59,274 nucleotides of DNA from positions 1 to 59,274 of the forward strand of contig JAWCQN010000004.1 in assembly GCA_038869755.1 (NCBI GenBank), written 5' to 3'. Origin of the DNA: Candidatus Pacearchaeota archaeon (GTDB lineage: Archaea; Nanobdellota; Nanobdellia; Pacearchaeales; GW2011-AR1). The notes beneath the pieces are model-generated. The model worked only from the letters and a program-made list of their open reading frames with translations, was not told where the DNA came from and ran no database searches. Positions 28,564-59,274 of the stretch are shown one piece after another. The stretch's first letter is position 1. Each line of letters begins with the position of its first letter. The position numbers were made by a program, and so were the translations under genes.

Positions 28564-28692
28564 TGAGCCTGCCCAGATTTGAACTGGGGACCCCTGGCTC
28601 TCTTAGACTTTTTTCCTGACTAAGAGAAAAACAATCCTCATAGATTGTTGTCATATAAGACCAGTGCTCTAACCTGACTGAGCTACAGGCTC
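28564..28692 (-). tRNA. tRNA-Ile(UAU) with 54-nt intron (28600..28653) at position 37/38
   Basis: GAGCCTG acceptor, GCTC/GAGC D-stem, CTGGT-CT-TAT-A|intron|A-GCCAG, CCCAG-TTCAAAT-CTGGG; strict BHB: CTTA/TAAG helix, bulges TAT and AGA, flanking GAC/GTC helix. Confidence 0.92.
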
Positions 28693-28766
28693 ATGAGACT
28701 TAGCTCTAACCTTCCAAATTTCGGAGAGTTAATAAAGATGCTTCCATTATTGAGCTACAGGCTCAT
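28693..28766 (-). repeat. Duplicated 5' end of tRNA-Ile with hairpin insert, lying between the promoter and the tRNA
   Basis: TGAGCTACAGGCTCAT at 28679-28694 and 28751-28766; GCTCTAACCT at 28666-28675 and 28703-28712; TATA at 28788-28795. Confidence 0.85.
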
Positions 28767-28862
28767 ACATTTCTAAAAAATAAGTTGTATTTAAAGATTC
28801 CTGATTAAACTAATATATTTAAGAAAAGATAATTTTTTAAACTGATAAATTTATTAAAAGTA

Positions 28863-28985
28863 ATGAAAGAGGAATATGAAGAAGAATTTTCTGATGATCT
28901 GTCTGATGACGATCTCCCATTTGAAGATGATGAAGATGAAGATTCAAATGGGAACGATGATGAAGATGAAGATTTAAGTTATTAG
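28863..28985 (+). CDS. Extremely acidic 40-aa microprotein (not in ORF track)
   Basis: MKEEYEEEFSDDLSDDDLPFEDDEDEDSNGNDDEDEDLSY; TATA-like TTTTTAAA ~25 nt upstream; T-rich tract downstream. Confidence 0.65.
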   Translation: MKEEYEEEFSDDLSDDDLPFEDDEDEDSNGNDDEDEDLSY

Positions 28986-29017
28986 TATTCCATAACCTAA
29001 TTTAATTTTTTTCTTTT

Positions 29018-29992
29018 TTAATTTTCATTTATAGATAGATCAAACCTATTATTTCCCTCATTTATTTCGCCAACTAAATCATCAGCGTCTATGATGAATG
29101 ATACATCTTTAAGATTCTTATTTACCCTGATACCAGAAACCGAAATTTCCTTGCCTGTACCTGAATCCAATTCACCAATATTATAATTGCCAATTAAATT
29201 ATTGTCCCCATAAAAAGTTAAATTCACAGGCTCGGATTTTTTTAAACCTGCATTAATGATCTCTATATTGAAACTAAATTCTATTCCTTTTTTCTCAGCA
29301 ACTGCTTTTATGATAATAAGATCTGGAAGACTGGGAATAGAATAAAGTTCATTAATGTTATCAATAATCTCTTTTGTCATCTGCTGATTACAATTAACAG
29401 TATTATACATTATTGAATTTTTATCAATGCTGTGTTTAAAACCTAATACATGAAGTATCTCATGGATGGCTATTATTGGTTTTGAGCAGGTATTTTCTTT
29501 ATATAAAAAAATTGTGCCGTTATTAATAATGTAAAAATTTGTTGCATTAATTATTGAAGATGGTCCACCTTCTCCAGCAATAAAATACCCTTCATTAATT
29601 CTTCTCTCAGTTCTCTTAGAATTGGAACAAGAAACCTCTATCTGACCATTTAGATCTAATTCATAAAATTCCAATATGGTATTCTCCTCCAATAAATCAA
29701 ATGCTCTTCTTGCATCGTCTGCCCTATCACTGGAACAAGTCTGATCTATAAAATAGCTTATACGCTTATCTTTAAACCGCATATTATCATAAAACAAGAC
29801 ACCATCTGGAAAATCATCCGGGATAGTAATATTAACAATACTCCTATTTCCCTCATCATTCACAGGAACAAATTTTTCAACCTCACTAAAATAATAACTA
29901 TCAATAATAGGATAAATCTGGTAGATGATAAAACCAATAACTCCAAGCAGGATAAAAATAAGCATATATGATAAGGTATCTAAAAATTTCAT
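29018..29992 (-). CDS. Membrane-anchored matrixin (M10) metalloprotease with C-terminal CARDB domain
   Basis: HEILHVLGFKH zinc motif, SIMY Met-turn, LPDL...N.G...ID....EINEGNN CARDB signature. Confidence 0.88.
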   Translation of the reverse strand: MKFLDTLSYMLIFILLGVIGFIIYQIYPIIDSYYFSEVEKFVPVNDEGNRSIVNITIPDDFPDGVLFYDNMRFKDKRISYFIDQTCSSDRADDARRAFDLLEENTILEFYELDLNGQIEVSCSNSKRTERRINEGYFIAGEGGPSSIINATNFYIINNGTIFLYKENTCSKPIIAIHEILHVLGFKHSIDKNSIMYNTVNCNQQMTKEIIDNINELYSIPSLPDLIIIKAVAEKKGIEFSFNIEIINAGLKKSEPVNLTFYGDNNLIGNYNIGELDSGTGKEISVSGIRVNKNLKDVSFIIDADDLVGEINEGNNRFDLSINEN

Positions 29993-30034
29993 ATAGTATT
30001 AAAATCATTGATGTTTTAAATTTAATCATTTAGG

Positions 30035-30685
30035 CTACAAAAAAGAGTCCCTGAGATAATCAAATCCTGCAAACAATCCGATAAGACCTGTTGCAATGCT
30101 TAAAATCAAAATTATAGGCCCAGTACCAGGTAAATTAAAGATAATTGCTCCAATAGCTATAGATTGGATGAAAGTCGTTACCTTACCAATATATTTGACT
30201 TTATATGAATCCAAATTCCTTATTATCCTTACAACAAATCCCGGGAATGCCACTATTTCCCTTGATAAACATATTACCAACAAATAAGCCATATTTTTAT
30301 CAGTATAATAAAACTTATACATCAATATTAATACCAAAGGAATCATGAATACTCTATCTATTACCTGATCCAGCCTTGCGCCAAGCTCTGTTTTTTGATT
30401 GAGTCTTCTTGCAAAAAATCCGTCAAACCAATCTGATATAGCTGCAAATGCGAATAAAACGCCTATTAAGATATTGTTATAATTAAACAAAATCATATAA
30501 CCCAAAATAAATGCAAAAATAAGCCTGATTAGCGTAATAGTATTTGGAACATTTAAAATAAATTCTTTTTTAATCTCTTTTTCAAATTTTTTGCTCTCTT
30601 CTTTAAGTTTTTTGTTAATCTTAGATAAATTATTATTTTTATTTAAAGAAGCATTTTTCTTATTTATTCCTTTTTCCTTAACCAT
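30035..30685 (-). CDS. CDP-alcohol phosphatidyltransferase (PgsA-like)
   Basis: NVPNTITLIR, SDWFDGFFARRLNQKTELGARLDQVID signature. Confidence 0.9.
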   Translation of the reverse strand: MVKEKGINKKNASLNKNNNLSKINKKLKEESKKFEKEIKKEFILNVPNTITLIRLIFAFILGYMILFNYNNILIGVLFAFAAISDWFDGFFARRLNQKTELGARLDQVIDRVFMIPLVLILMYKFYYTDKNMAYLLVICLSREIVAFPGFVVRIIRNLDSYKVKYIGKVTTFIQSIAIGAIIFNLPGTGPIILILSIATGLIGLFAGFDYLRDSFL

Positions 30686-30729
30686 GTTTATAAAAGATAA
30701 AATAACTATTTAAATTTTCTCTGTAAAAT

Positions 30730-30859
30730 GTATTGTTGTATCTGTGGGTGTTTTATACAACGTTTTAAGTTGATTAACCATAAAAAATTTATGGAAAAGA
30801 GTTTAATCAAAAAGGGCAAATCTTTTTTATTCAGTTTAGCACCTACAACGCAACAATAC
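30730..30859 (+). ncRNA. Candidate structured RNA (long closing stem plus three internal hairpins)
   Basis: GTATTGTTG(30730-38)/CAACAATAC(30851-59); TGTGGGTGTT(30743-52)/AGCACCTACA(30838-47) with G-U pairs on + strand; inner CAAC/GTTG, CCATAAA/TTTATGG, AAAAGA/TCTTTT. Confidence 0.45.
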
Positions 30860-31187
30860 GCTGTGAAAATATAATTTTAAACATCAAAAAGAAATACTTT
30901 TTGTGGCTTAAAACCACTAAGAAGCTTTAAATATTCAAATAACCGGAAATGTACATGGGTGATAAGGATTTTATAGGAAAAACAATAGATAAGATTTTTT
31001 ACAGTGATGTTTTCACAATAAACTATTCTGTTTTAGCAATCAAATAAAAACTATTTTATTTACGAAGAATCATCATTAATCCAGTTATTGCAACTAAAAA
31101 GCAATCTATTTTAAATATCTAAGATAGCAGTATTACAACAAAAAGATAATAAGGTTTAAAAATCATAAGGAATAATTTATGATACAT

Positions 31188-31259
31188 GCCCGCGTAGTTA
31201 AGTGGCCATAATAAGACCCTGTCGCGGTCTAGTCCCGGGTTCGATTCCCGGTGCGGGCG
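31188..31259 (+). tRNA. tRNA-Asp(GUC)
   Basis: GCCCGCG...AGACC-CTGTCGC-GGTCT...CCGGG-TTCGATT-CCCGG-TGCGGGC-G; TATA ~26 nt upstream. Confidence 0.95.
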
Positions 31260-31348
31260 TCCTTATTTTTTAAATTCAAAAATAATTAAAAGAGAAATTT
31301 AAATCTCGCAAAAAAAACTTTATTTGTTCTATAGCCATTAGTTTAGAG

Positions 31349-32329
31349 TTATACTAAAAAACTAATTGTTTTATTATTATTGCCCTCATTTATTTCAATT
31401 ATTTCATTTTCATAATCAACAACAAAAAAAATTTCATTATTTGTCAAATTATTAAGTTTTATATTTCTAACACTAATTATTTTACCTGAACCTATGCCTA
31501 ATTCCCCAATAGAATAATTTAAAATTAAATTATCACCATTATAAAGAGAAAGTTTGGTATCATTAGAACGAGAAAGACCAACATTAACAATTTTTGCTTC
31601 AAAATCAATGTAGTCTTCGCTAAAGTTGGCCTTAACTTCCTTTAATTCCAAATCCGGAAGCTGTGAATCCTTATATAAAAAATTTACCTTTTCAATAATT
31701 TCTCCAGTAATCTTCTGACTGCAGTCTGATGTATTATACATTATTGAATTTTTATCAATGCTGTGTTTAAAACCCAAAACATGCAAAATTTCGTGCAACT
31801 CAAGAACAGGATAGGAACACTCACTTTCTCCATAAAGTCTGATACTCCCATTGATAATAATATTATACCTTGAATTATTTAAAATAGATAATGGTCCTCC
31901 CTCTCCAAGTATGTGTGTATTTCCATTTTTTAGTGTATAATTAAAACAATACACATTTATATCAGCTTGTTCATTTGCCTCGTAAAAACTTAAATTGGTC
32001 TCTGCATCCAGAATAAAAAAAGCTTTAGCCAGATTATTAAGATTTCTCTGGGAACAGTTTTCAGATATAAAATATGATATTGAATTATTACTAAACCTTA
32101 TATTTTCATATATTAACTGCTCTCCTAAAAAAGAATCGTAGTTGACATTTTCAGAAATTATAGGAGACTCAAATACATAAATCTGGTTAATTCCATTACC
32201 TGTGGGAGATAAACCAACAAACAAATAAGAGATTATAAAATACGACAAAATTGCCACAAATCCTACAAATAAAAGGGAGAAAAAAAACACAAAGACCATA
32301 AATTTAGTATTAACCATAAAAATACCCAT
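31349..32329 (-). CDS. Membrane-anchored matrixin (M10) metalloprotease with CARDB domain, paralogue of 29018..29992
   Basis: HEILHVLGFKH, SIMY, LPDL...EINEGNN. Confidence 0.88.
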   Translation of the reverse strand: MGIFMVNTKFMVFVFFFSLLFVGFVAILSYFIISYLFVGLSPTGNGINQIYVFESPIISENVNYDSFLGEQLIYENIRFSNNSISYFISENCSQRNLNNLAKAFFILDAETNLSFYEANEQADINVYCFNYTLKNGNTHILGEGGPLSILNNSRYNIIINGSIRLYGESECSYPVLELHEILHVLGFKHSIDKNSIMYNTSDCSQKITGEIIEKVNFLYKDSQLPDLELKEVKANFSEDYIDFEAKIVNVGLSRSNDTKLSLYNGDNLILNYSIGELGIGSGKIISVRNIKLNNLTNNEIFFVVDYENEIIEINEGNNNKTISFLV

Positions 32330-32416
32330 AATTCTTTTTTATAAATCTAACTATTCTGATTTAAGAGAAAAATTAAAAAGAAGAAGTTTATATACTTTTA
32401 CGCATATAAAAATAAG

Positions 32417-33481
32417 ATGGAAGAAAAAAAAGAGAAGCAAACCACAATTATTGAGATTAAACATAGCGGACATTCAACTAATGAAGAATTTTTAAACATT
32501 TTAAAAATGGTGTCACCCGGAACTTCATTAAGAAGCGGAATTGATGGTATTGTGGAAGCAAAAAAAGGAGCTTTAATAGTTCTGGAAAATGAAAATGTAA
32601 ACAGAATAATTGATGGTGGTTTTAAGATTAATGCAAAATTTACACCACAAAAACTCATAGAGCTATCAAAAATGGATGGGGCAATCGTCCTTTCCAAGGA
32701 TATAAAAAGGGTAATTTATGCTAATGTCATGCTTGTCCCTGACAGCAAAATTCCAAGTCAGGAAACCGGAACAAGACATAAGGCTGCTGAAAGAACTGCA
32801 AAAATGACAGGAACTCTTACCATAGCAATTTCAGAAAGGAAAAACCAGATAAATATATACTATAAAGACCTAAAATACCACTTAAAAGATAAATCTGAAA
32901 TACTAAGAAGGGCAACTGAAACGCTCCAGATTTTAGAGAAGCAAAGAGAATTGTTTGATGTAAATATTGAAAGACTTAATTACCTTGAAATATTCAATGA
33001 TTTAAATATAATTCAAGCAGCAAAAGTAATTCAGAAGGGTAAAATAATGCAGAAAATATTGGAGTCTCAGGAAAAAACCTTAATAGAACTCGGAAATGAA
33101 GCAGGGGCAATTAAACTTAGAATAAAAGAATTAATGAAAGATGTTGAAAAAGAAACAGATCTTGTCATTAAAGACTATACAAAACTAAATTTAAAAAAAT
33201 CAAAAATTTTACTTGATAATTTGTCTTATGAAGAACTTATAGACAATGAAAACATACTTCTTGCCTTGGCCCAAAATGAGAATAATCAGGTAGAATTAAT
33301 AAAAGGGTGGAGAATTCTTTCAAAAACCCATCTGGATGAAAATGAAATATCAAAAATAATAAATGAGTTAAATGACCTGCAGGTAATACTGGAATCAAAA
33401 AAAGAAAAATTCGAGCAGATAATAGGGAATGAGAAGGCGATAATACTGGCAAAAGATCTGGCAAGAATAAAAAACCAATAA
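32417..33481 (+). CDS. disA: DisA-type diadenylate cyclase
   Basis: PGT.LR.GI, ELSKMDGAI (DGA), ETGTRHKAAERTAK (RHR-like), AISERK, followed by a helical DisA linker. Confidence 0.85.
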   Translation: MEEKKEKQTTIIEIKHSGHSTNEEFLNILKMVSPGTSLRSGIDGIVEAKKGALIVLENENVNRIIDGGFKINAKFTPQKLIELSKMDGAIVLSKDIKRVIYANVMLVPDSKIPSQETGTRHKAAERTAKMTGTLTIAISERKNQINIYYKDLKYHLKDKSEILRRATETLQILEKQRELFDVNIERLNYLEIFNDLNIIQAAKVIQKGKIMQKILESQEKTLIELGNEAGAIKLRIKELMKDVEKETDLVIKDYTKLNLKKSKILLDNLSYEELIDNENILLALAQNENNQVELIKGWRILSKTHLDENEISKIINELNDLQVILESKKEKFEQIIGNEKAIILAKDLARIKNQ

Positions 33482-33519
33482 TTGAAAATATTTATATAAT
33501 CTATCTTCCAATATAAGCT

Positions 33520-34158
33520 ATGGAAAAAAATGAGTCTATTATAGAAGAAGGTGTTCCAAAAAAGTTTAACGTATTTTTGCTTGTTCTTCTCTCAATTATA
33601 ACCTTAGGAGTTTATTCTTACATTTGGTATATTATAAATGGAAAAAAACTAAATAACCTTAAAACAAAATCAAAAATAAATAATAAAATACCATTAATAT
33701 CATTAATAGTGTTCCTTATAATAATTATATTAACCATTGCATTAATAACAATAGCAAAATTAAATGTTATTAACGAAGGAATTAATGCAACCACCATATC
33801 AGATATCCCTATACAATTTACAATAATATTCACTATAAATATTGCATTAATAACAACATTATGCATACTTACCTTGTTTCTGGCATTTAGAACAAGAAAA
33901 ATACTCAATGAAACTCTTGAAAACAAAGGTGAAAAAGTCAAAATTTCTGGATTCTTTAGTTTGATATTCAATCTATTTTACCTCCAATATGAAATAAACA
34001 GGATTATAGATGACAAAGAGAATAACAAAAGACTTGGACCTTGGATTGTTTTTGCTATATTGATACTGACTTTAATATTGCCATTAACCATAATTCTTAT
34101 TCTGGTTTATGTTTTTAAAAAAAGTATAGATATAGGAATTTTTAACAGAGTAACATAA
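33520..34158 (+). CDS. Membrane protein (DUF4234-like)
   Basis: LLSIITLGVYSYIWY and FYLQYEIN motifs; several TMs. Confidence 0.65.
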   Translation: MEKNESIIEEGVPKKFNVFLLVLLSIITLGVYSYIWYIINGKKLNNLKTKSKINNKIPLISLIVFLIIIILTIALITIAKLNVINEGINATTISDIPIQFTIIFTINIALITTLCILTLFLAFRTRKILNETLENKGEKVKISGFFSLIFNLFYLQYEINRIIDDKENNKRLGPWIVFAILILTLILPLTIILILVYVFKKSIDIGIFNRVT

Positions 34159-34243
34159 ATCCATAATTTATTAAAAAACAGGTAATAAAAAAGATATTAT
34201 ATGTTAGTATAATGTTTTTAAATAAATTTTTCAACTTTAACTA

Positions 34244-34972
34244 ATGAAAAGACGTGATTTCCTAAAGAGATTGATTGAGATAACATTAGCATCATCAAAT
34301 TTGGGTGTATATTCTGAATCAATACAACAACCAAAAATTAAATCAGAAGACCTTTTAGCTACAGGAATAAAGAATATTTATCTGACCATAGATGATGGAC
34401 CCGGAAAATACATGGGAGAAATACTTGAAAAAATAAATAAAAGAAAAGGAAAAGTTGTTTTCTATATTGTAGGAGAACACTATAATGCAAATAAAACAGG
34501 GCAAACTCTGGTAAAAAAAGCAATAGAGTATGGCCATATAATAGCAAACCACTCTTATTCTCATCCAAATTTTAACAGCATAAGCTTAGATTCTGCAAAA
34601 ATACAAATTCAGAAAACAGATGAGATAATTGAAAAAGCTTATAGTGAGGTTGGAATTAAAAGAGAAGTAAAATTATTTAGGTTCCCAGGGGGTTCTGCTA
34701 AAAAAAGCGTGATCCCTTTTTTAGAAACCTTAAGATATAGGCCTATAAGGTCTTGGGACAGCAAGAAAGAGGATGACTGGAACATAGATACATTGGATTG
34801 GAAATACGGCAATGGCATTGATGGAGAAAAAATTATGAATATATGCAGGAAAACCAAGGAAGGAGATGTTGTATTAGTACATGATCAACCAAGAGGAAAT
34901 TATTTTACAGCCAATAGAATAATACCTTATTACCTTAATGAAAAAGAATATAAACTAATTTTACCTGCCTAA
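34244..34972 (+). CDS. Polysaccharide deacetylase (CE4/NodB) with twin-arginine N-terminus
   Basis: LTIDDGP, NHSYSH, FRFPGG, DTLDW, VLVHD motifs; MKRRDFLK. Confidence 0.9.
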   Translation: MKRRDFLKRLIEITLASSNLGVYSESIQQPKIKSEDLLATGIKNIYLTIDDGPGKYMGEILEKINKRKGKVVFYIVGEHYNANKTGQTLVKKAIEYGHIIANHSYSHPNFNSISLDSAKIQIQKTDEIIEKAYSEVGIKREVKLFRFPGGSAKKSVIPFLETLRYRPIRSWDSKKEDDWNIDTLDWKYGNGIDGEKIMNICRKTKEGDVVLVHDQPRGNYFTANRIIPYYLNEKEYKLILPA

Positions 34973-36660
34973 TCCAAATATTTTCCAATAACCTCGTTAA
35001 ATAACTTAAATGGAGGCTCTTTAGGATTATTTTCAGGATTTAAACTAGTGGGAGTTGATTGTCTCACAGGATAATACCTTAATCCCTTTTCCAACTCATA
35101 AGCCTCCAAAGCTTCTAAACTTCCCCCTGTTCTTAATGGAGTTGAAATTAATTTCATATTCAATCTTTCATCACTCCCTGCCGGGGCTCCCCATCTTATT
35201 TCAGGAGGGTGATTTGGATCAAAAGACAAATCAAAAAGCCTTTTTTCTATGTCAGATAGTGTAAGACTGACTTCACCACCATTTGATTTTTTATATACAA
35301 TAAAATAATTCGAAAAAAGTTCTTCTTTTCTTTTCATCAATTTAGCAGCCAATTCCTCCGAAAATGAAAATCCTGAATAATCATAGACTCTGCTAAAAGG
35401 ATCAAAATTTATCAGCATATCTTCTATTCTTGTTGTTATATAATTATACTTATTCTTTCTGTCAACATCGCTTGAAGGTGAAGAAAAAACCTCCCATCTG
35501 CCATTTGCCTGATAGATATTTTCTGAACTTGAATCATTTGGAAAAGTTATAGGGCCATTAATTAAAACATCATTCCATGCAGCTTCAACAAATTCAACCC
35601 TTTCTTTCATCATCTCTGCAAATTCCAATATAGAGTTCTCCAAAAAATCCAGTGGCTTTTCCTTACCAGTTCTTAAGCATGCCCTGACATAATCAGGATA
35701 TGAGGAAACTTTTTGTCCATTAACAATTAATCCGGATGAATTAATTTTAGCCATATCTTTATACTGTAAAATAGAATAACCAAAAGGAATCATTTCTTCA
35801 TTAGTAAAATGAACTGCTCTTCCATTATTTATTTTAGCTAACCTGATATTTCTAAATCCATCATAACACCTCTTCAATCCGTGAACTCCCAATTCAGCAG
35901 GTTTCACAGATGGTATTGCTGATAGGGTTTGATTAAATGTTATAGAATGGTCTGGATGAGCATCCAAAAAATGAACCTCTCCTGATTCTTCAATATGACC
36001 TACAACCAAACAATGTCCGTTGGCATTATAACACATTGTTCCGGGCATTAGGCAGCTCCTATCTATGGAAATTGGAACAGAATCTGTCTTTTCCAGATTA
36101 GGATCTGTCCTAAAATTTCCTGAAACAAAATTATAACCTCCATGTCCGCCAAATATCGAATTCTGAATAAAACTTCCAAAATCTCCATTAAATGAAAGGC
36201 TATCAACGTGTCCTATAGGATGATTTCCCTTAGAATACCTTATATCGCTTCCAGACTCCATTTTAATTTTTGAAACAAGACAAGGAAGCCCTCTCCTGTA
36301 AGAGTAATACAAAAATAAAAGCATGGGAAATGATCCGCAATGATTTGCTGCATTCAGGATATTTGCTTCCTTATCTGAAATTTGTGGATTACCGTCATTC
36401 AAGAAATTCTGGTGATTAAGTAAATTCATTTCGTCGTCTTTGATTATGTAATTCAAGCGAGCCATTTTTTGTTTTCCAGAACCATTTCTTTTAAAATGAT
36501 AGATATTGCCAACCCATTTGGAATACCTGTAAAATTCGTCCAGATTCCATGTCCTTAAATGTTCCCATGCTCCTGTATTCGTATCAGCATCTACATAAAA
36601 AAATAAAGAGCTTATTGCAGGCAAAACTTTAAAAAAGTCTCTTCTAGACACTCCTCTCAT
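34969..36660 (-). CDS. Twin-arginine protein with putative papain/NlpC-P60-like Cys-His-Asp triad
   Basis: SRRDFFK; HCGSFP (Cys), PGT.CY...GHCLVV (His), FLDAH (Asp) in NlpC/P60-like order. Confidence 0.55.
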   Translation of the reverse strand: MRGVSRRDFFKVLPAISSLFFYVDADTNTGAWEHLRTWNLDEFYRYSKWVGNIYHFKRNGSGKQKMARLNYIIKDDEMNLLNHQNFLNDGNPQISDKEANILNAANHCGSFPMLLFLYYSYRRGLPCLVSKIKMESGSDIRYSKGNHPIGHVDSLSFNGDFGSFIQNSIFGGHGGYNFVSGNFRTDPNLEKTDSVPISIDRSCLMPGTMCYNANGHCLVVGHIEESGEVHFLDAHPDHSITFNQTLSAIPSVKPAELGVHGLKRCYDGFRNIRLAKINNGRAVHFTNEEMIPFGYSILQYKDMAKINSSGLIVNGQKVSSYPDYVRACLRTGKEKPLDFLENSILEFAEMMKERVEFVEAAWNDVLINGPITFPNDSSSENIYQANGRWEVFSSPSSDVDRKNKYNYITTRIEDMLINFDPFSRVYDYSGFSFSEELAAKLMKRKEELFSNYFIVYKKSNGGEVSLTLSDIEKRLFDLSFDPNHPPEIRWGAPAGSDERLNMKLISTPLRTGGSLEALEAYELEKGLRYYPVRQSTPTSLNPENNPKEPPFKLFNEVIGKYLD

Positions 36661-36726
36661 TTAAAGTTATAAAAAGAATATTATTTAAATTTATTAGCAG
36701 TAAAAAACATATTATTGATATAGGAG

Positions 36727-38037: not shown

Positions 38038-38061
38038 ATTTTATAGAACAAATAAGATTAT

Positions 38062-38370
38062 TTAACCCTTTCGAAGATAATTATAGTATTTATCCAAGCA
38101 AGTTTCATAAAAATCATAATCTTTGTCTTTCAAAGCTCTAAGCCCAAGCCTTATCAAACTTCTTATCTCTCTTTTTTTATAACCCTTAAAGTAGGCATAC
38201 TCTAAATTATCAACCTCTTCCAATTCCCGTATCCTATCTTCAATACCCCTAACCAGCGCTTCAGGAGAAAAATGAGAAACAGAATCTCTACTACCAAAAC
38301 TCTCAAAGAAGTTTAATACTCTATCTATTATTATTGAAGCCATTTTTACCATTTTTACTAAGGATTTCAT
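38062..38370 (-). CDS. Hypothetical protein
   Basis: 102-aa ORF upstream of the HerA-like gene, same strand. Confidence 0.55.
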   Translation of the reverse strand: MKSLVKMVKMASIIIDRVLNFFESFGSRDSVSHFSPEALVRGIEDRIRELEEVDNLEYAYFKGYKKREIRSLIRLGLRALKDKDYDFYETCLDKYYNYLRKG

Positions 38371-38447
38371 ATATATAATTTTAATGGTTGTAAACCATAG
38401 ATTTATCTACCATAACATTTTTAAATGTTCATCATCTGCAATATAGA

Positions 38448-40574: not shown

Positions 40575-40575
40575 T

Positions 40576-41544: not shown

Positions 41545-41611
41545 AAATGTTTTATAAACTATTCCTATAAAAAGATTGCTATACTAAAATAGAAACAATA
41601 TAATTAATAAC

Positions 41612-41740: not shown

Positions 41741-41780
41741 AAATTTAATAAAAAATTTATTTATAAACCTTGTTGTGAAA

Positions 41781-44074: not shown

Positions 44075-44077
44075 AAA

Positions 44078-45730: not shown

Positions 45731-45771
45731 AAAAATTAATATGAGTTATAATATATAAATTTAATGAAAGA

Positions 45772-45973
45772 TGCTCCCGCCGGGACTTGAACCCGGGTCT
45801 GGGCCGTTCTCCGAAATCTCAAAATACTACAAAACCAAAGTTTTGTTCTAAACTGAGACTTTCCTAATAAAGGAAGGAGTGCAGTTGATTTGAGAATCGT
45901 GCTGTATCCTTTCAACAAAGTTAACAGGCACTGCTCGAGAGGGCCCAATGCTTGACCGCTACACCACAGGAGC
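45772..45973 (-). tRNA. tRNA-Glu(CUC) with 129-nt intron (45807..45935) at position 37/38
   Basis: GCTCCTG...GGGCC-CT-CTC-G|intron|C-GGCCC...CCGGG-TTCAAGT-CCCGG-CGGGAGC-A; BHB-like CTCT/GGAG helix with bulges CGA and AAC. Confidence 0.88.
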
Positions 45974-45983
45974 TAAAAGACAT

Positions 45984-46058
45984 CAAAGGTTTCTTTTATA
46001 AACTTCCTTTAATACTCACATAAACACCAAAGGTTTCTTTTATAAACTTCCTTTAATA
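45984..46058 (-). promoter_or_regulatory. Tandemly duplicated tRNA promoter (exact 31-bp direct repeat, period 44)
   Basis: CAAAGGTTTCTTTTATAAACTTCCTTTAATA at 45984-46014 and 46028-46058; each copy contains TTTATAAA with a purine-rich BRE-like run on the - strand. Confidence 0.85.
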
Positions 46059-46089
46059 TCTTTAATATTTAATAAATACTATAAAAATC

Positions 46090-46752: not shown

Positions 46753-46860
46753 CTATAAATAAACAGCATTTATAAATATCACATCTTATATAATTCTATC
46801 TATCTTGTTTGTGAATAATAGAAAGAAAAACAATAAAAACCAGGTTCAATTAATTAAAAG

Positions 46861-47205: not shown

Positions 47206-47268
47206 TAATAATTATAATAAAATAAATATGGAACTGAGTATATTAATAATTCTAATATGAAAAAATAA

Positions 47269-48621: not shown

Positions 48622-48693
48622 ATAGCCTATTTAACAATATAAAGAAGAAAGCAAGGTTTTTAAGAGTGTTGATATTATCTATTTAAATAAAAA

Positions 48694-49458: not shown

Positions 49459-49498
49459 TAAACGCAATATTTTAAAAGACCAAATTCTTTAATCATCT

Positions 49499-51703: not shown

Positions 51704-51794
51704 CATTCTCACAAACAAAATATTTCTTGTTTTATTTATTTAGTAAAATTTTTGTATTAGAAATATTTTAATACCTGCCAGTTTTATTTAAATT

Positions 51795-52919
51795 ATGGAT
51801 TTAAAAAAAGAGGCCTACAATAAATCTATCGAAATTCTGGAGAAAATATCAACTCCAAACGGATTTTTTGCAGGCTATCCGGGATATGATGCCATATGGG
51901 CAAGAGATTCAATGATAATTTCCCTTGGAGCTTCTCTTTTAGGAAATAAATTCAAGAACACTTTTGAAAAATCTTTAATAACATTATCAGATAACCAGTC
52001 ACTAAATGGACAAATTCCAAATGCAGTTGACAAGTTTGCTAAAAGAAAACCCCGCGTAGATTTTCAGTCAATTGATTCAAGTTTATGGTATATAATAGGA
52101 CATTATATATACAAAAAAAGGTATAATGATTCATCTTTATTTGATAAATATGGAAAAAATATAGAAAAAGCCTTTATATGGCTAAAGTATCAGGACACTG
52201 GGGAAGATTCAATGCTTGAACAACAGCCTACAAGTGACTGGTTTGACGCATTTCCCCACAGATATGGACATACTATTAACACCCAAGCACTATATTATAG
52301 ATCTCTTATATTGAATGGAAGGAAAAAAGAAGCTGATAAACTAAAATGGATGTGTAACAAACATAAAGACAATGCTTTATGGAGTCATGAGTTTGGATTT
52401 TATCTTACTTACAGGTGGAAAAACCACGGGAAATATCATGAAAAAGGAGATTGGTTTGATTCTCTGGGAAATTTATTGGCAATTATCTTTGAACTGGCAG
52501 ATAATAATAAAAGTGAAAAAATTTTAAGTTACATAAAATCAAATAAAATTGACAAACCATATCCGGTAAGATGTATTTATCCGCCATTAACCAAAAATAG
52601 CAAATACTGGTATGATTATTTTGAAGATTGCTCTGCAAAAGATCCTTGGCATTACTCCAATGCAGGAATCTGGACTTACATAGGAGGGTTTTATATCCTC
52701 GCACTGATTAAAATGAAAAAATTTAAGGAAGCAGAATACCAGCTTGGGAAATTAGCAGAAGCAAATATGCAAAATAATGGAAATTTTGCAGAGTGGCTTA
52801 ATGGAAAAACCGGAAAAATAGGAACCTCTCAATCAGGAAAAGAAGGATATCAGGGATGGAACGCAGGAATGTATATATTAGCATATGAATCCCTAAAACA
52901 AAAAAAATGTTTAATCTAA
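51795..52919 (+). CDS. (alpha/alpha)6 glycoside hydrolase (GH100 / amylo-alpha-1,6-glucosidase C-terminal-like)
   Basis: IWARDS, DSSLWY, DW.D, Y.NAGIW, FAEW, QGWNA. Confidence 0.75.
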   Translation: MDLKKEAYNKSIEILEKISTPNGFFAGYPGYDAIWARDSMIISLGASLLGNKFKNTFEKSLITLSDNQSLNGQIPNAVDKFAKRKPRVDFQSIDSSLWYIIGHYIYKKRYNDSSLFDKYGKNIEKAFIWLKYQDTGEDSMLEQQPTSDWFDAFPHRYGHTINTQALYYRSLILNGRKKEADKLKWMCNKHKDNALWSHEFGFYLTYRWKNHGKYHEKGDWFDSLGNLLAIIFELADNNKSEKILSYIKSNKIDKPYPVRCIYPPLTKNSKYWYDYFEDCSAKDPWHYSNAGIWTYIGGFYILALIKMKKFKEAEYQLGKLAEANMQNNGNFAEWLNGKTGKIGTSQSGKEGYQGWNAGMYILAYESLKQKKCLI

Positions 52920-52921
52920 CT

Positions 52922-54061
52922 TTATTTGAAATGTTGGTTTATCAAGTCTAACATTTTTTTAGCAACAATTTTATAATGAAAGTTTTTTAATGCGTAATCT
53001 GCAGCTTCTCTTCCCATCTGTTCTCTTAAAAGGTCGTCTTTTAATAATTTAAGAGTATAATCTGCAAGTTGTAGAACATCTGCCCTATAGGCAAATGTTT
53101 TTGGTTTATCAAAAACAATCTGGTGTTTTTCTTCAAAACCCATCCATGGATATGCCCACTCTCTTTCAAGTTTTACTTCAGACTCAACATCAACTAAAAA
53201 TCCTGTTTTTCCATGGACAATCACATCTCTTGGACCTCCAACATTTATTGAAATTACAGGCTTGCCACATGCCTGAGCTTCCAATTGAATCATTCCAAAT
53301 CCTTCAAGTCTGGATGGGCCTGCATAGATGTCGCACGCCTGTATCAAAGAGGCCATAAATTCAGGAGAGTATTTTCCAGAAAGATAAATAACTTTATTTT
53401 TATCTATGCCAAGCTCATCTAAAAGTTTGTTTTCTTCATGGCCATGGTCTTCCGCAGAAAAGCTGTCATAAGTTTTTAAAACATATTTCCAGTTTGGAAA
53501 TTCTTTATCTATTAGTGCAAGAGCCTTAAACATCTCCTGAGCTCCTTTACTGGTAACATCTCCACCAGCTGTAAGAATCATTTTATCATGATCCAGAATT
53601 CCAAGCAACTCCCTTAATTTTTTCACACCAAAGCTATCCTTATCAACTGAATGAAATACTTCTGGATCAAAACCTATCGGACAAACTTTTATATTGTCCC
53701 CCTTGACCCCATCTCTTATATATGTGGATTTAACCCAGTTGCTTGTAGCTACTATTAAAGGCAGATTATTCAATGTGTGATGATAATTTGCAACCCAACC
53801 ATCTGCATTAAACCAAGGAACTGCCTTAAGCCCGTGGTTCATAGGACTATGTACAACTTCGGGAATATTTCCCCAGTATCCAATTCCCAAAACTATATCT
53901 GGATTAAATGCTTTGTACGCATGTAATTTTTGTAGATTATCAGCCCTGTCACATGGCATTACTTCAACTCCATTCTCAACTAACCCTTTTATCAAATAAT
54001 GTCCCTGCAAACTCTGTCCATCAGGTTCTGGAGGATGTGGATATAAAACCAATATTTTCAT
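52922..54061 (-). CDS. GT4 glycosyltransferase
   Basis: KGAQEM..A, PSRLEGFGMIQLEAQACGKPVI, GG..DVI.HG.TG. Confidence 0.9.
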   Translation of the reverse strand: MKILVLYPHPPEPDGQSLQGHYLIKGLVENGVEVMPCDRADNLQKLHAYKAFNPDIVLGIGYWGNIPEVVHSPMNHGLKAVPWFNADGWVANYHHTLNNLPLIVATSNWVKSTYIRDGVKGDNIKVCPIGFDPEVFHSVDKDSFGVKKLRELLGILDHDKMILTAGGDVTSKGAQEMFKALALIDKEFPNWKYVLKTYDSFSAEDHGHEENKLLDELGIDKNKVIYLSGKYSPEFMASLIQACDIYAGPSRLEGFGMIQLEAQACGKPVISINVGGPRDVIVHGKTGFLVDVESEVKLEREWAYPWMGFEEKHQIVFDKPKTFAYRADVLQLADYTLKLLKDDLLREQMGREAADYALKNFHYKIVAKKMLDLINQHFK

Positions 54062-54062
54062 T

Positions 54063-54665
54063 TTATAAGAATAACCTGCTAAATGATTCTTTACTATAAC
54101 AGCTTAAAGCTTCAAAACTATTTGTTTGAAAACCATACATATTCTTAATAATATTTAACTTGTCCTTATATAACTCTTCATTAAGTTCAATAATTACATC
54201 GGATTTTTTAGGAACAGGGAGTTTCAAATCAGGTATTCCCGGAGTTGATTTATCACTTAGTTTATAAGAAAAAAAATGAAGTTCGTCGCATAATAATTTT
54301 CCGGTTTTAACCATGATATCAACAGCTTTGTGAATTTCTTTATGTCTTATATGTCCATATTCCCCGTTTTCCCCATGAGTAAAAATATAATTAAAATTCC
54401 TAAAAGGGATATTATTCTCAATTACCTGAATAATATAGGAAATTGGTAATGGCTCAAGTTTTTCATCGTCCAGATCAGCAATAATAGGTATTGCCCCATA
54501 ATATTCACATACTTTTCTAAATTTCGGAGCCCTATCAGGATCATTTGCCCTGCATAAGGAAACTATGGTCCAGTTCCAATCCTTATTTTTCAGTATAATA
54601 CCTCCCATCCATATCGTCTCATCATCAGGATGAGCAACAATCACCAAAGCTTTTTTATCTGACAT
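54063..54665 (-). CDS. PIG-L/LmbE-family N-acetylglucosaminyl deacetylase
   Basis: VAHPDDET and TH...GEYGHIRH motifs. Confidence 0.88.
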   Translation of the reverse strand: MSDKKALVIVAHPDDETIWMGGIILKNKDWNWTIVSLCRANDPDRAPKFRKVCEYYGAIPIIADLDDEKLEPLPISYIIQVIENNIPFRNFNYIFTHGENGEYGHIRHKEIHKAVDIMVKTGKLLCDELHFFSYKLSDKSTPGIPDLKLPVPKKSDVIIELNEELYKDKLNIIKNMYGFQTNSFEALSCYSKESFSRLFL

Positions 54666-54707
54666 AAATAATCCAGATTAAGTGCTTATTTAAAATTTTT
54701 TATATTG

Positions 54708-55460
54708 TTATATAGACAATTTCAAATCACTGGCAACATCAGAGGAAATAATAAACTCTACATTTTTGTGCCTTCTTAAAATACTTGCCGGAATTTTCCT
54801 GCTGATTTTTCCTGACAATGTTTTCTTAATAGCAACACTCTTCTTTTTTCCGACAGCAATTAAAATTATCTTTTTTGAATTCATTATCGTCTTAATGCCC
54901 ATAGTCAATGCATATTTTGGAAAATTCTCGTTAAAGAAATATTTTGAATTTTGTTTTATTGTTGATTTTGATAATTTAACCATCCTTGTTAAACTCTGAA
55001 AAGAAGAATTTGGCTCGTTAAAACCTATATGCCCATTAACTCCTATACCAAGCACCTGAAGATCAATGCCGCCTTCCTCTTTTATCATTCTTTCATAATT
55101 CTTACATTCTTTTTCATAATCTTTGGTATTTCCGGACAAAAAATGTATGTTTTCCTCTTTTATGTTAACATGTCTAAAAAAATTTTTTTCCATAAAATAC
55201 CTAAAACTATTTCTGCTTTTTCCTGATATAGGATAATACTCATCAAGATTAAATGTCTTTACTCTGGAAAAATCAAAATGATGTTTTTTATAATGATAAA
55301 TTAATTCTTTGTAAAAAGGTTTCATTGTCTTCCCGGTTGCCAAACCAAAAACTAAATTTGGTTTCTTTTTTATTTCATTACACACAATTTTGGCAGCTTC
55401 CTTGAAAACATCTTTTTCAGTTTTTACAATTAATAATTTAAAATCACTTTTATTTATCAT
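54708..55460 (-). CDS. nagB: Glucosamine-6-phosphate deaminase
   Basis: GLATG.T, TFNLDEY, GGIDLQVLGIG.NGHIGFNEP, ALTMGI, PASIL..H. Confidence 0.93.
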   Translation of the reverse strand: MINKSDFKLLIVKTEKDVFKEAAKIVCNEIKKKPNLVFGLATGKTMKPFYKELIYHYKKHHFDFSRVKTFNLDEYYPISGKSRNSFRYFMEKNFFRHVNIKEENIHFLSGNTKDYEKECKNYERMIKEEGGIDLQVLGIGVNGHIGFNEPNSSFQSLTRMVKLSKSTIKQNSKYFFNENFPKYALTMGIKTIMNSKKIILIAVGKKKSVAIKKTLSGKISRKIPASILRRHKNVEFIISSDVASDLKLSI

Positions 55461-56542
55461 TTCATATTCAAATGCCTGAAAATTTCATTAAAAGAAATTT
55501 TCCTGACACTCACAACACTATCTGCACCACCAGCATATATAATCAAGGATTTTTTATCTTTAGTAGGAATGGCAGATGTAGGAAATACGACATTGGCCAG
55601 ATAACCTTCTTTCTCAAATTTTTCTGAAGGAGATATTAAAGGTTTATTAGGAGAAGACCTTGCTAAAACTATCTCTGGATTTTTTAAGTCCAATAAAGCT
55701 GCTCCTGCACTGTAAAATCTTTTTTCTCCTTCCTCTCTCATCCCATGATAAATAATCAGCCATCCTTTTTTGGTTTTTATTGGTGGACATCCTCCACCAA
55801 TTCTGTCAGCCTCCCATGTTCCAGGTCCTCTTGGCCTCATTAAATTTTTATCTTTACCCCAGTATATCAAATCCCTTGAATATGAAATCCATATTCCAGG
55901 TTTAGTGAAGTTAAAAAGACTTTCAGGCCTGTTTAAGGCAACATACTCTCCATTAATTTTTTCAGGAAATAAAACCACATCCTTATTTTGCTCCCTGAAT
56001 ATTAAACCCAAACGTTTCCATTTCTTTAAATCATCTGAAACAGCAAGATAAGTTGATACCCCTTCCTTAACTGAAACTCCTACATAGGTCATATAGTATT
56101 TTTCTTCTATTTGTGTAATTCTGGGATCTTCAACACCATAATCGCTCTCATCAGGAACCCCGCTAAATACCGGTTCATGCTCAATCTTATCAATATTATA
56201 CCCGTCTTCCTTAATAGTTATTTTTCTAAAATGAGAAATATGAGGAAGAATGCATGTTCCGTCCCTCAAATAAATTTCATTCCATTTCCCTGTCTTAAGG
56301 ACATCCTGCTCCATAATTGTTTTGTATTTTACTTTATATTGATATTTAGAAGTAATAAATGGGCACATTAAAGTTTTTCCTTTCTTATACTGTATGCCTG
56401 ATTCTGCAACTCTTACATACATAATTATCTTTCCGTTTTTGTCTCTGATGGCTCCTGGATTTAAAACACCAAGTATTTTCCAGTCTTTAAAACTCGGTCT
56501 TAAATTATCAGGAGACAATAACACCTTGCTTTTTTGTGACAT
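55457..56542 (-). CDS. GH130 beta-mannoside phosphorylase/hydrolase
   Basis: LNPGA, GVEDPRIT, NKDVVLFP, IGGGCPPIKT, YHG, NVVFP. Confidence 0.88.
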   Translation of the reverse strand: MSQKSKVLLSPDNLRPSFKDWKILGVLNPGAIRDKNGKIIMYVRVAESGIQYKKGKTLMCPFITSKYQYKVKYKTIMEQDVLKTGKWNEIYLRDGTCILPHISHFRKITIKEDGYNIDKIEHEPVFSGVPDESDYGVEDPRITQIEEKYYMTYVGVSVKEGVSTYLAVSDDLKKWKRLGLIFREQNKDVVLFPEKINGEYVALNRPESLFNFTKPGIWISYSRDLIYWGKDKNLMRPRGPGTWEADRIGGGCPPIKTKKGWLIIYHGMREEGEKRFYSAGAALLDLKNPEIVLARSSPNKPLISPSEKFEKEGYLANVVFPTSAIPTKDKKSLIIYAGGADSVVSVRKISFNEIFRHLNMK

Positions 56543-56577
56543 TTTAACTAAAAGGTTTATTTAATTTATAAACCATT

Positions 56578-58923
56578 CTATAACTTTTTTTTAGAAATAT
56601 ACCAGATTATATAACTTAGGGATCCTATTCCAAACAATAAAATAATAATTATTAAAACATAAAGAAAATAAGTATTACTTCTCTTAATATTTTCCTGAGA
56701 AGAAACTGTGGTTGAATTGTCTGTTAAATTAAATCCAGACTGATTACTTCCTGAAAAAAAGGTATTATTGTTTTGAACTCCCCCAGCTATACCTGCCCCA
56801 CTTCCAGAGCTTCCACCTCCAGAAGAACCCCTTCCACCAGAAAAATTAGTAGGGGTTTCCTCAGCAGAGTATTTTGAAAATCCAATTACATTAAAAACAA
56901 GATTACCATTATTATAATTTATATTAGAGCAAATATTTGAAGGGCATACTTCATCATTCATTAAAACTCTCGGGTTGTCAAAAGGCAAATTGTATAAAGT
57001 TAAAGTTGCAGATTTATTCAATTGGGGAGATATGACTGAATTTATTTCTATATGGTTGCTATTAATTATGACTCTTGAATTCAAATCTATCCCATCAGAC
57101 AGGTTAACAGGAGAATTAAAGTGAATTTTTCCCTTACCTGTTTTCTCCAGAATTAAATTTGGAATATTTGAAGTGTCAATAATAGAAAGATTAGTTGTGG
57201 ACCCGTCAAAATTATCATAACTAATATTCAAATATTCAAATGCTCCAACATCTACACCTCTGCCTTGTGGAACAAAATTTCCTGAAAAATCTCTTATTAA
57301 TCCAACATTAGTTCCTGCATCAATCCCAGGAGAATTCTGCAAAAGCCTGAAATTATTATTGCCTGAATCAACAAACAAAGGATTAGTGGTTATTGAATTT
57401 GTTGAATTTCCATAAGCAAGACTAAACTCCATGTAATTACTAATACTGGCATTTCCCCATAGTATAAACCCAAAATAAGATTTTCCAAATGCATTATTTT
57501 CATAAATATTATTTTTTCCAAGAATTCCGTCATTCTCACCCCCATTTTCCACAAATAATTGATATTCTGAATTATTGACTGCTATATTATTTTTTATAAT
57601 ATTTCCTGTAACAGAATCATTAACCAATTTATAATCTCCATGAACCCATATTCCATATTTATTACCGACAGCAACATTATTGAAAATAGAGTTGTTATGA
57701 ATTCCAGACCTATTATCACTACCATACAAAGTAAAACCTCCATGAGAATTATTATATGCAATGTTATAATACATTTTTACCCCTACTCCTTGCTCTGCAA
57801 TAAATCCGTTTTTTGAGTTATTATATGCAATATTATACCTAGCAACACAACCCTCATTGAAAACATCAAAATAAAATCCTGCTCCGCTTCCAGATAAATT
57901 TCCATAATTGCTATGTGAAACAGAGTATTCAATTAAAAGATTGGAAGCATTATAAGATCCAATTCCAGTGCCTTCTGTAATAGCAAAACCATTTCCATAC
58001 GCTGTTGAGTATCTTACAATAGTATTATTTGTTCGAGCTGAAATCTGAATTCCTGATCCTCCATTTCCATATGAAGTGACATTTTGGATAAAACCATTAT
58101 CATTAGTCAGGTAATTATGTGAATTAGTTGTAAGGACTCCATGACCAAAATTATAGGATGAGATAGAATTTATTATAGTAATATTATCTACATCTCCAGT
58201 AGCATTGTAAGCCTGAATTCCAACATTATTTGTTTTATCTGCATGCAATCCGTCTATTGTGATGTAATTTTTTCCTAAAATAGAAACTCCAAGACTCCTG
58301 ACACTGGCCTCAATACCGGGATTTTGAGGAATTAGATTTGGGTTGCTCAATGAATAAATATATAGAGTATTAGAACTCCAATTCCACTCATATTCATTGT
58401 TTAATTGCGTATCCTGCTCAGGAATTCCCCTCACTCCATTAAAAAAAACCTGTTTTGTGGGAGTTGTTAAATTAACCTTCCATATGCCCGAACCCATGTC
58501 CTGCCATCCTGTAAGAACATTTGCTCCACTAATTATAGGATTGGGGCCGGAACCATATGCTCCAAAAAATATATGACTGGTAGAATTTCCAGAATTTGGA
58601 ACATTAAGCTGCTCTCTCCATATCTGGCCTCTTTTAAATAAAACAGAGTCTCCGGGATTTAAAGTCAAAGAATTTATTTTTGAAATAGTTTTAAATGGAA
58701 GCAATTCACTTGTACCGGAATTTGAATCATTTCCATTGATAAAATCCACATAATAAGTTGTTCCAACTGGGCTTAAATCGACCTTGATGGATTTTTGAAA
58801 ATTATTAAACTGATATATAACAAGTATAAATAAAATTACTAACAGAACCAAAACCAGTTTTAACACCTTTAAATTATCCCTATTTACCACTCTTTTCACC
58901 ATTAAGATAAAATATGTTTTCAC
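56578..58923 (-). CDS. Surface-anchored right-handed beta-helix (pectin-lyase-like) protein
   Basis: TYYVD..NG.DSNSGTS...PFKTI; Asn/Gly-rich beta-helix repeats; F.L..NSP.IDAG...D.GAFE; N- and C-terminal TMs; Gly/Ser linker. Confidence 0.82.
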   Translation of the reverse strand: MKTYFILMVKRVVNRDNLKVLKLVLVLLVILFILVIYQFNNFQKSIKVDLSPVGTTYYVDFINGNDSNSGTSELLPFKTISKINSLTLNPGDSVLFKRGQIWREQLNVPNSGNSTSHIFFGAYGSGPNPIISGANVLTGWQDMGSGIWKVNLTTPTKQVFFNGVRGIPEQDTQLNNEYEWNWSSNTLYIYSLSNPNLIPQNPGIEASVRSLGVSILGKNYITIDGLHADKTNNVGIQAYNATGDVDNITIINSISSYNFGHGVLTTNSHNYLTNDNGFIQNVTSYGNGGSGIQISARTNNTIVRYSTAYGNGFAITEGTGIGSYNASNLLIEYSVSHSNYGNLSGSGAGFYFDVFNEGCVARYNIAYNNSKNGFIAEQGVGVKMYYNIAYNNSHGGFTLYGSDNRSGIHNNSIFNNVAVGNKYGIWVHGDYKLVNDSVTGNIIKNNIAVNNSEYQLFVENGGENDGILGKNNIYENNAFGKSYFGFILWGNASISNYMEFSLAYGNSTNSITTNPLFVDSGNNNFRLLQNSPGIDAGTNVGLIRDFSGNFVPQGRGVDVGAFEYLNISYDNFDGSTTNLSIIDTSNIPNLILEKTGKGKIHFNSPVNLSDGIDLNSRVIINSNHIEINSVISPQLNKSATLTLYNLPFDNPRVLMNDEVCPSNICSNINYNNGNLVFNVIGFSKYSAEETPTNFSGGRGSSGGGSSGSGAGIAGGVQNNNTFFSGSNQSGFNLTDNSTTVSSQENIKRSNTYFLYVLIIIILLFGIGSLSYIIWYISKKKL

Positions 58924-58969
58924 ACTTTAAAAAGATGTTTGTGCCAAACCCTCTCTCGCCTTCTGAATT

Positions 58970-59274
58970 TTATAGCCCTGCCAGGATTCGAACACTTACA
59001 TTCGTAAGAATGGAAGTTCCCGAGAATTTCCAATTCTCGTGGACTGGGACAGGTTCGATTATAGCCCTGCCAGGATTCGAACACTTACATTCGTAAGAAT
59101 GGAAGTTCCCGAGAATTTCCAATTCTCGTGGACTGGGACAGGTTCGATTATAGCCCTGCCAGGATTCGAACACTTACATTCGTAAGAATGGAAGTTCCCG
59201 AGAATTTCCAATTCTCGTGGACTGGGACAGGTTCGATTATAGCCCTGCCAGGATTCGAACACTTACATTCGTAA
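58970..59274 (-). repeat. Tandem array of an identical 89-bp unit (3.4 copies, runs off the window) containing a tRNA 3' end
   Basis: Units start at 58971, 59060, 59149, 59238; the - strand of each ends GTTCGAATCCTGGCAGGGCTA (T-loop, T-stem, acceptor strand); internal hairpins CTTAC/GTAAG and CGAGAATT/AATTCTCG. Confidence 0.92.

Follow-up and report, generated by a model that had tools for sequence, protein, structure and literature searches.

The tRNA genes of ultrasmall archaea are noted for introns, splits and permutations, the origin of which is debated. Short structured sequences of other kinds are known as well. REP/REPIN sequences with RAYT and the PATEs derived from IS200/IS605 are hairpin-forming non-coding repeats, dispersed in both orientations and sometimes clustered; to our knowledge, insertion inside tRNA genes with duplication of a tRNA end is a feature of neither. 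Transposition of non-canonical archaeal tRNA introns has reportedly been proposed in Thermoproteales, and tRNA-like processing elements, such as those of the mascRNA type and the archaeal 5S flank, are cut by RNase P and RNase Z. Here we describe tiny hairpin cassettes at the genes for tRNA-Ile(UAU) (locus (i)) and tRNA-Gln(CUG) (locus (iii)) in a stretch of 59,274 nucleotides from Candidatus Pacearchaeota archaeon, hereafter the window. It is the whole contig C4 of source genome G000 (assembly of 627 kb in 20 contigs, 30% G+C); genomes of relatives are numbered likewise, and C denotes contigs. Coordinates of the features discussed below were counted by hand from the printed sequence.

The closest precedent is integration into tRNA genes by viruses and plasmids of archaea (SSV1/pNOB8 type), together with the tRNA-disruption model of Sugahara et al. 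2012 (PMC3293823). In the portion of that paper available to us, it shares with our loci a directly repeated tRNA terminus flanking the insert, one intact tRNA and heterogeneity within populations. The cassette DNA found here is, however, only 50–120 nt long and gene-free, and we found no integrase island or attP-bearing element. Moreover, the spare copy repeats the sequence of the local tRNA itself and is accompanied by an inverted copy of the terminus. In the accessible parts of the literature searched, tRNA-end repeats are described only around integrated elements of kb scale (PMC3293823, PMC9897764), and full-text searches, with supplements outside their scope, returned no description of such cassettes. 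The cassettes also resemble non-canonical archaeal tRNA introns in being short structured inserts at D- or T-arm positions that are similar across tRNAs. They differ in that no bulge-helix-bulge (BHB) motif lies at their boundaries and in that the tRNA is uninterrupted, its end being duplicated instead.

The general architecture is plain from the loci themselves. Each cassette is bordered by a spare direct copy of a tRNA end on one side and by the intact tRNA on the other, with an inverted copy of the terminus beside the tRNA. Loci (i) and (iii) are two separate lineage-wide classes of such hairpin cassettes at tRNA gene ends. In our preferred reading, which we hold with confidence and doubt in about equal measure, the window contains representatives of two families, unrelated to each other, of tiny hairpin-rich cassettes that are non-coding and lie at tRNA ends in this DPANN-like family of archaea, and the core of the first, element E, and probably that of the second, module M, are non-autonomous elements. 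The sequence-only reading of the window had already proposed that short non-coding hairpin inserts lie beside tRNA-end copies and leave the tRNA intact, and this pattern proved recurrent. The 5′ type, sought as a second D-arm word 45–105 nt upstream, occurs in 46 of 301 genomes of the family (43 of 191 genera). The pair pattern at the tRNA-Gln 3′ end occurs in 36 of 401 genomes of the order (22 of 153 genera; 34 of 355 genomes in the family). Reversed-pattern controls gave none for either type. In a biased sample of 100 tRNAs, a 5′-end copy lay upstream in 3 cases and a 3′-end copy downstream in 11, against 0 and 0 in swapped-flank controls. A full scan of all tRNA flanks was made in G000, which has 36 tRNA genes, 8 of them with canonical introns (aragorn, intron mode). 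Isoleucine is decoded there by tRNAs with GAU and UAU anticodons, encoded at C10:20060-20176 and at window positions 28564-28692, and two CAU tRNAs are present (C8, C11).

At locus (i), all features lie on the minus strand. The tRNA-Ile(UAU) gene (28564..28692; Rfam tRNA, 56.3 bits) is intact and carries a canonical BHB intron of 54 nt at 28600-28653 (aragorn i(41,54); strict BHB with h=5 and h′=3). Two identical 16-mers flank a 56-nt insert, just as first read. Copy 2 (28679..28694) comprises nt 1–14 of the tRNA and the two preceding bases (nt −2 to 14) and thus sits inside the real gene, whereas copy 1 (28751..28766) is a spare of tRNA-Ile nt 1–14. Read towards the tRNA, the order is the copy of nt 1–14, two hairpins, a complement of nt 1–11, a linker and the intact tRNA-Ile. 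The complement (28695..28709) matches the tRNA 5′ end imperfectly and closes the cassette in the predicted fold by pairing with copy 1. That an insert end can pair with the duplicated tRNA end had also been pointed out before; it holds and is general in relatives. The second hairpin, hpB (28710..28728), was assigned from folds and aligns with hpB of relatives. The segment 28724..28750, comprising the first hairpin, hpA, and a conserved tail, aligns with cassettes of G015, G442, G325, G143, G393 and G155 and represents the decayed core of element E. An alternative reading of the locus as a promoter duplication was dropped because this segment aligns with hpA of E. A TATA-like promoter box (28787..28796) upstream of copy 1 is orthologous to the box of G017 and G020. 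An AT-rich 32-nt repeat (x1.9; window 28805-28864) lies just upstream of this promoter.

Comparison of filled and empty orthologous sites had been proposed as a check, and both states exist, for the Ile cassette as well as for an intergenic copy of E. The Ile cassette is absent from the closest relatives G017 and G020, in which tRNA and intron are 93% and 91% identical and the promoter box directly precedes tRNA-Ile with no insert between them. G015 has a cassette homologous to that of locus (i); the 5′ cassette of G003 contains a different insert. From its alignments, the insert of locus (i) is a decayed member of E, a hairpin element that was copied repeatedly. As it aligns with E and E recurs at other tRNAs and other loci, the insert is not a private oddity of this gene. 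To this extent the earlier proposal of a non-autonomous element at tRNA ends gained ground, since insert (i) belongs to a dispersed family found at other tRNAs too.

Cassettes of tRNA-Ile (G442, G155, G015), tRNA-Lys (G325) and tRNA-Arg (G143) can be aligned with the window insert, and the three best-kept inserts differ pairwise at 5–7 of 52 positions. In other genera, E occupies the same position at Ile, Lys, Arg and Phe tRNAs, and each E-bearing tRNA cassette duplicates the first 14 nt of its own local tRNA. The core of E, searched as a 26-mer with up to 3 mismatches, is present in 11 of 151 genomes (10 of 150 genera) and in 0 controls. It is 87–100% identical between genera and tRNA species. 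Copies at non-orthologous loci of the genus are 92–100% identical, compared with 64–76% for the flanking genes. In G000 we counted 13 copies at 6–7 loci, mostly in three tandem arrays, in both orientations with respect to neighbouring genes. E cores also lie downstream of stop codons, upstream of start codons and, in opposite orientation, directly upstream of tRNA-Leu(CAA) in both G000 and G437; in G362, two E cores are located in the intron of tRNA-Ser(GCU). At about position 21100 of contig C1 of G000, a 54-nt piece with an E core separates two genes. It is absent from four relatives: in G018 and G006 the stop and start codons abut, and in G012 and G007 the matches are contiguous.

Further repeats were observed around E. 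The tandem at the tRNA-Leu(CAA) 5′ end of G000 (C1:119963-120062, 41 nt x2.4, with E core) abuts the gene at a contig end, where G437 has a single copy. Tandem arrays of the E core with periods of 61 and 106 nt lie at C18:9056-9370, C11:1-219 and the end of C11. The opposite strand of the 61-nt unit reads GGAGG, ATG and an open frame of 19 codons, and the final unit adjoins the start of a real gene. Within the 206-nt canonical tRNA-Ser(GCU) intron of G000, the same intron that carries E cores in G362, there is a 64-nt tandem (x2.7; C11:17259-17433). One motif of a 47-nt tandem (x3) at C14:7562-7704 is found again in the C11 array (second unit type) and in a tRNA-Gln unit of G006.

The 5′ search pattern admits Ile or Lys tRNAs, and all 30 loci fetched are Ile or Lys accordingly. 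They fall into two classes, and the window belongs to class II: a copy that ends after nt 14, two hairpins, a complement of nt 1–11, a linker of 3–25 nt and the tRNA. All class-II copies have nt 14 as their last nucleotide, two bases past the palindrome AGCT (nt 9–12). Of 16 class-II units folded, most have a minimum free energy structure that is a three-way junction closed by copy 1 and its complement, with z-scores of −1.6 to −6.0. In most of the 30 units the inverted tRNA-end copy lies 7–21 nt from tRNA +1, and it is longer than in shuffled inserts. Copy 1 sometimes has mismatches that are absent from copy 2. Like mascRNA-type elements, the 5′ units are predicted to have a closing helix that repeats the cognate acceptor-stem strands and has about the length of the acceptor/T-stem stack; they differ in having no T arm and no Rfam match. 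Indeed, a search of Rfam 15 with the window and 13 cassette loci returned tRNA matches only and placed no curated RNA family on the units. Three other identities for the units were considered and rejected. A hammerhead-like junction core has C in place of the essential G (by eye) and no Rfam match, no boxes of a C/D-box guide are visible by eye, and resemblance to a degenerate whole-tRNA copy is only partial. In G000 itself, a class-II 5′ cassette with an 82-nt period stands before tRNA-Lys(UUU) (C9:14743-14937). A promoter-like stretch of 20 nt recurs in the second hairpin of this cassette and again further upstream, which suggests that another, partial unit precedes the cassette.

Locus (iii) is a tandem array of 3′ cassettes behind tRNA-Gln(CUG), on the minus strand at 58970..59274, where Tandem Repeats Finder reports an 89-nt unit repeated 3.4 times at 100% identity up to the contig end. 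In the unit, a 24-nt stretch that copies the 3′ end of the tRNA together with 3 trailer bases (58970..58993) is followed by module M (58994..59043) and by the complement of the T arm (59044..59058). The two hairpins of M were read on the plus strand: hp1 (58995..59016), whose GNRA-type loop on this strand marks the module as inverted with respect to the tRNA in comparison with the type-A relatives described below, and hp2 (59021..59039). The tRNA portion of the unit matches the tRNA-Gln 3′ end. The gene for tRNA-Gln(CUG) itself is absent from the assembly, its body lying just past the contig end on the minus strand. Cassettes of this kind break assemblies at tRNA genes, which accounts for the missing gene, and can mislead tRNA annotation. 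In public contigs of the probable source run, the left flank is joined to the unit, whose tRNA-end copy continues into an antisense tRNA-Gln(CUG). These contigs support the unit and its tRNA-end copy as first read. Sequencing depth in these contigs is 15–21 for unit pieces and 9.6–9.8 for the flank, a ratio of 1.6–2.2, and therefore indicates about 2 copies and not 3.4. A contig from a second sample, which differs at 1 of 694 nt, passes from the flank into the tRNA-Gln body after the shared 24 nt; the passage covers 8 letters only and gives a hint of an empty allele. Synteny around tRNA-Thr(GGU) suggests that C15 would be the neighbouring contig across the missing tRNA-Gln(CUG). A 55-nt tandem (x4.3; C15:1-237) ends 8 nt before tRNA-Thr(GGU), runs off the contig start and probably faces the right end of the window.

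Behind tRNA-Gln genes of relatives, which are complete before the units, the 3′ type has a constant order. The tRNA is followed by a linker, the T-arm complement, the two hairpins of M and a copy of the last 12–31 nt of the tRNA; in type-A units a T-loop-like word stands between the T-arm complement and hairpin 1. The 3′ copies begin at variable positions and share no common palindrome. Units form arrays of 1–3, which are identical in G005, G258 and G002 (for Ile) and diverged in others. Twelve type-A units from 11 genomes support three helices. Paired cells amount to 86%, compared with 76% in shuffles (reached in 0 of 500), and 12 pairs have changes on both sides (0 of 500 shuffles), whereas slid controls reach at most 55%. 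In contrast to these 12 units, M is reversed in G000, G258, G017, G347 and at the second Gln gene of G011 (C2). Both orientations occur within one genus, and the inverted module is bounded by imperfect inverted repeats. In some relatives, tRNA-Glu and tRNA-Ile are followed by the same 3′ architecture, rebuilt from the sequence of the local T arm. At G258:C4:19200-20800, tRNA-Gln and two units are followed by 940 bp with a membrane-protein gene, past which lies another tRNA-Gln-like gene; its 5′ half is divergent, its 3′ half is identical, and one further unit accompanies it.

Locus (ii), tRNA-Glu(CUC) (minus strand, 45772..45973), stands outside both classes. It had been counted as a third remodelled tRNA, and its 129-nt intron (45807-45935; aragorn i(40,129)) and doubled promoter box (minus strand, 45984..46054, with 27-nt copies at 45984-46010 and 46028-46054, read from the sequence) are indeed there. 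The intron, however, is an ordinary inherited one at the canonical position. Its BHB at position 37/38, read by hand, has a 5-bp helix h and a 4-bp central helix with one G-U pair; the strict BHB scan used below missed it because the inner helix is weak. The intron-bearing gene aligns full-length in 13 genomes of the genus, and the 27-nt promoter box recurs at many loci of relatives (for instance, 20 matches in G001 and 19 in G008). The motifs said to unite the three inserts do no better than chance in genome-drawn triples and shuffled controls. Among random same-length triples from G000, the 10-mer common to (i) and (ii), which overlaps the BHB helix of the Glu intron, was seen in 5.6%, any pair sharing at least a 10-mer in 13.5%, and the 8-mer of (i) and (iii) in 20%. 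With shared 8- and 10-mers at chance level, the idea of one family spanning the three loci was given up. Locus (ii) is a normal, vertically inherited intron, and nothing links it to the cassettes.

As non-autonomous elements, E and probably M would either be copied into short palindromic sites in tRNA genes or originate there, the sites being AGCT in the D arm and TTCGAA or CCWGG in the T arm. The survivors would be only those events that duplicate the tRNA end, because these keep one intact gene. The cassette would then be transcribed as a 5′ leader or a 3′ trailer and trimmed by RNase P and RNase Z. Arrays would grow, shrink and vanish through unequal recombination between tRNA-end copies, and M would flip between its own imperfect inverted repeats. 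In support of such tolerance, the tRNAs are intact without splicing out the cassette, and an archaeal RNase P RNA is present in G000 (C2:15965-16294, 81.9 bits at a cut-off of 84). A bolder version, which we regard as improbable, would make this a new route of DNA into tRNA genes. A hairpin element of about 55 nt would pair through a 3′ segment of the GCUAC type with the universally conserved nt 7–11 (on the 3′ side, with the T-arm palindrome), and template switching to the terminus would leave an inverted and a direct copy together with an intact gene, while M would also serve as an invertible switch.

Domain searches of G000 found no TnpB, reverse transcriptase, DDE_Tnp_1, IS110 or rve domain. 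The sole Y1_Tnp match is a solitary 138-aa open reading frame without a TnpB partner (C2:36135-36551, 69.6 bits). This IS200/IS605-type Y1 transposase is the only candidate enzyme seen, and the earlier suggestion to look for a co-occurring mobilising enzyme yielded this gene and a weak statistical link. Of 151 genomes in the family, 48 have a Y1 gene; Y1_Tnp is present in 7 of 11 genomes that have the E core and in 41 of 140 that lack it (one-sided p=0.025, the genomes being related and incomplete). E bears some resemblance to REP/REPIN-RAYT and PATEs in its hairpins, its dispersal and the solitary Y1 (HUH-type) transposase gene in the genome; it differs in its few copies per genome, and no copies of E flank the Y1 gene. 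A miniature inverted-repeat transposable element was considered and rejected. The inverted pair consists of the tRNA end and its complement and changes with the tRNA, and the length of the duplication (14–19 nt at the 5′ end, 12–31 nt at the 3′ end) is the distance to the terminus.

Several observations weigh against mobility. No enzyme was tied to the cassettes in the domain searches of G000, and the association of E with Y1 is weak, as related genomes are not independent. The translated Y1 reading frame, as we read it, has YIH where HUH is expected, and the GC hairpin at the 3′ end of the gene is unique in G000. IS200/IS605 elements are not known to duplicate their target on insertion, so the duplication of the tRNA end is not explained by them; it always extends from the insertion point to the tRNA terminus and is not a target duplication of fixed length. 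The only place in which M was found is behind tRNA-Gln, and G000 contains no other copy; vertical inheritance with loss therefore fits M as well as mobility does. Type-A M units have a modest bias towards the tRNA-sense strand (30 G-U versus 12 A-C cells), whereas the 5′ units have no strand asymmetry (29 versus 35 G-U pairs). Finally, compensatory changes mark the Lys cassettes of G000 and G010, which look orthologous; a conserved function would fit this too.

These points lead to the strongest competing explanation, which we consider possible and clearly less probable than mobile elements: the cassettes would be endogenous, vertically inherited leader or trailer modules that arose locally as partial tRNA-end duplications, direct and inverted, by replication slippage or template switching at tRNA palindromes and were kept for the function of a structured RNA. 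Such an RNA might act as a three-segment switch of tRNA end, complement and decoy copy, or supply tRNA-like pieces released by RNase P or RNase Z, and the patchy distribution would reflect easy, precise loss between direct repeats. The tie of M to tRNA-Gln in 22 genera, its covariation and the G-U excess on the sense strand speak for this, as do the shared architecture of the Lys(UUU) cassettes of G000 and G010, whose stems are fully changed and still paired. Units also match local T-arm and acceptor sequence at Gln, Glu and Ile, and plain tandem repeats occur at other tRNA flanks of G000 (Thr, Leu and the Ser intron). However, inheritance in place is difficult to reconcile with an E core that is more similar across genera and tRNA species than genes are, or with intergenic copies of E whose sites are empty in four relatives. 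The lack of strand bias in 5′ units counts against it as well, and the occurrence of M in both orientations relative to the tRNA would be awkward for a cis-acting RNA.

The tRNA-end copies might instead be attL and attR, with the cassettes being scars or miniatures of att-type integration and their hairpins remnants of arm sites. Direct repeats of a tRNA terminus around foreign DNA are, in the parts of the two sources available to us, the classic signature of archaeal integration (PMC3293823, PMC9897764). G000 encodes two Xer-like tyrosine recombinases, located away from the cassettes, and G258 has, between two tRNA-Gln 3′ halves that each carry a unit, a gene-bearing segment of 940 bp. Nevertheless, we found no integrase-type island and no attP-bearing virus: the 22-nt T-arm/acceptor word of tRNA-Gln never exceeds two copies in any of 201 family genomes (plain-word count), and no viral contig contains this word or a type-A unit. 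The spare copy is always that of the local tRNA, even though the same E sits at four tRNA species, and units of 55–130 nt that are conserved and covary are unlike decaying scars. We therefore judge att-like integration, which the sequence-only reading had raised together with reverse BHB splicing, to be unlikely. Still less probable, in our view, is that the inserts are non-canonical introns that are excised at a BHB and spread by reverse splicing, with the tRNA-end copy as the true exon. The palindrome AGCT, two bases before the stop at nt 14, could in principle form a 4-bp central helix between the copies, and DPANN endonucleases with extra loops are reported alongside disrupted tRNA genes (PMC5829648, in the part accessible to us). 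Yet a strict BHB scan of 8 loci, including (i), Lys, (iii), G018, G002, G003 and G015, found no motif that would remove insert and copy at any 5′ or 3′ duplication, whereas it recovered the canonical introns of Ile, Lys, G002 and G003. The cassettes do not interrupt the mature tRNA, tRNA-Ile being contiguous apart from its canonical intron, and the tRNA scores in full without such splicing. Mismatches in copy 1 that copy 2 lacks and the variable starts of the 3′ copies do not fit an intron either, and G000 encodes a single splicing endonuclease (EndA, 189 aa) and no reverse transcriptase. An artefact of assembly at the contig end, lastly, would concern only the array of locus (iii). The repeats of this array are 100% identical and continue to the contig's edge, tandem repeats also occupy several other contig ends of the assembly, and depth supports about two copies only. 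As independent contigs of the public run join flank, unit and tRNA-Gln(CUG), and homologous units stand behind tRNA-Gln in 35 other genomes, some of them within long contigs, we give this explanation hardly any credence.

In summary, tRNA ends in one large family of archaea are hot spots at which minute structured DNA segments come and go, multiply and change orientation while the gene remains unbroken. If E, and probably M, are indeed non-autonomous elements, one cassette core would move between different tRNAs and into an intron, and would thus be a testable source of new introns and leaders. It would also be a candidate for a minimal mobile element in genomes with almost no transposases.

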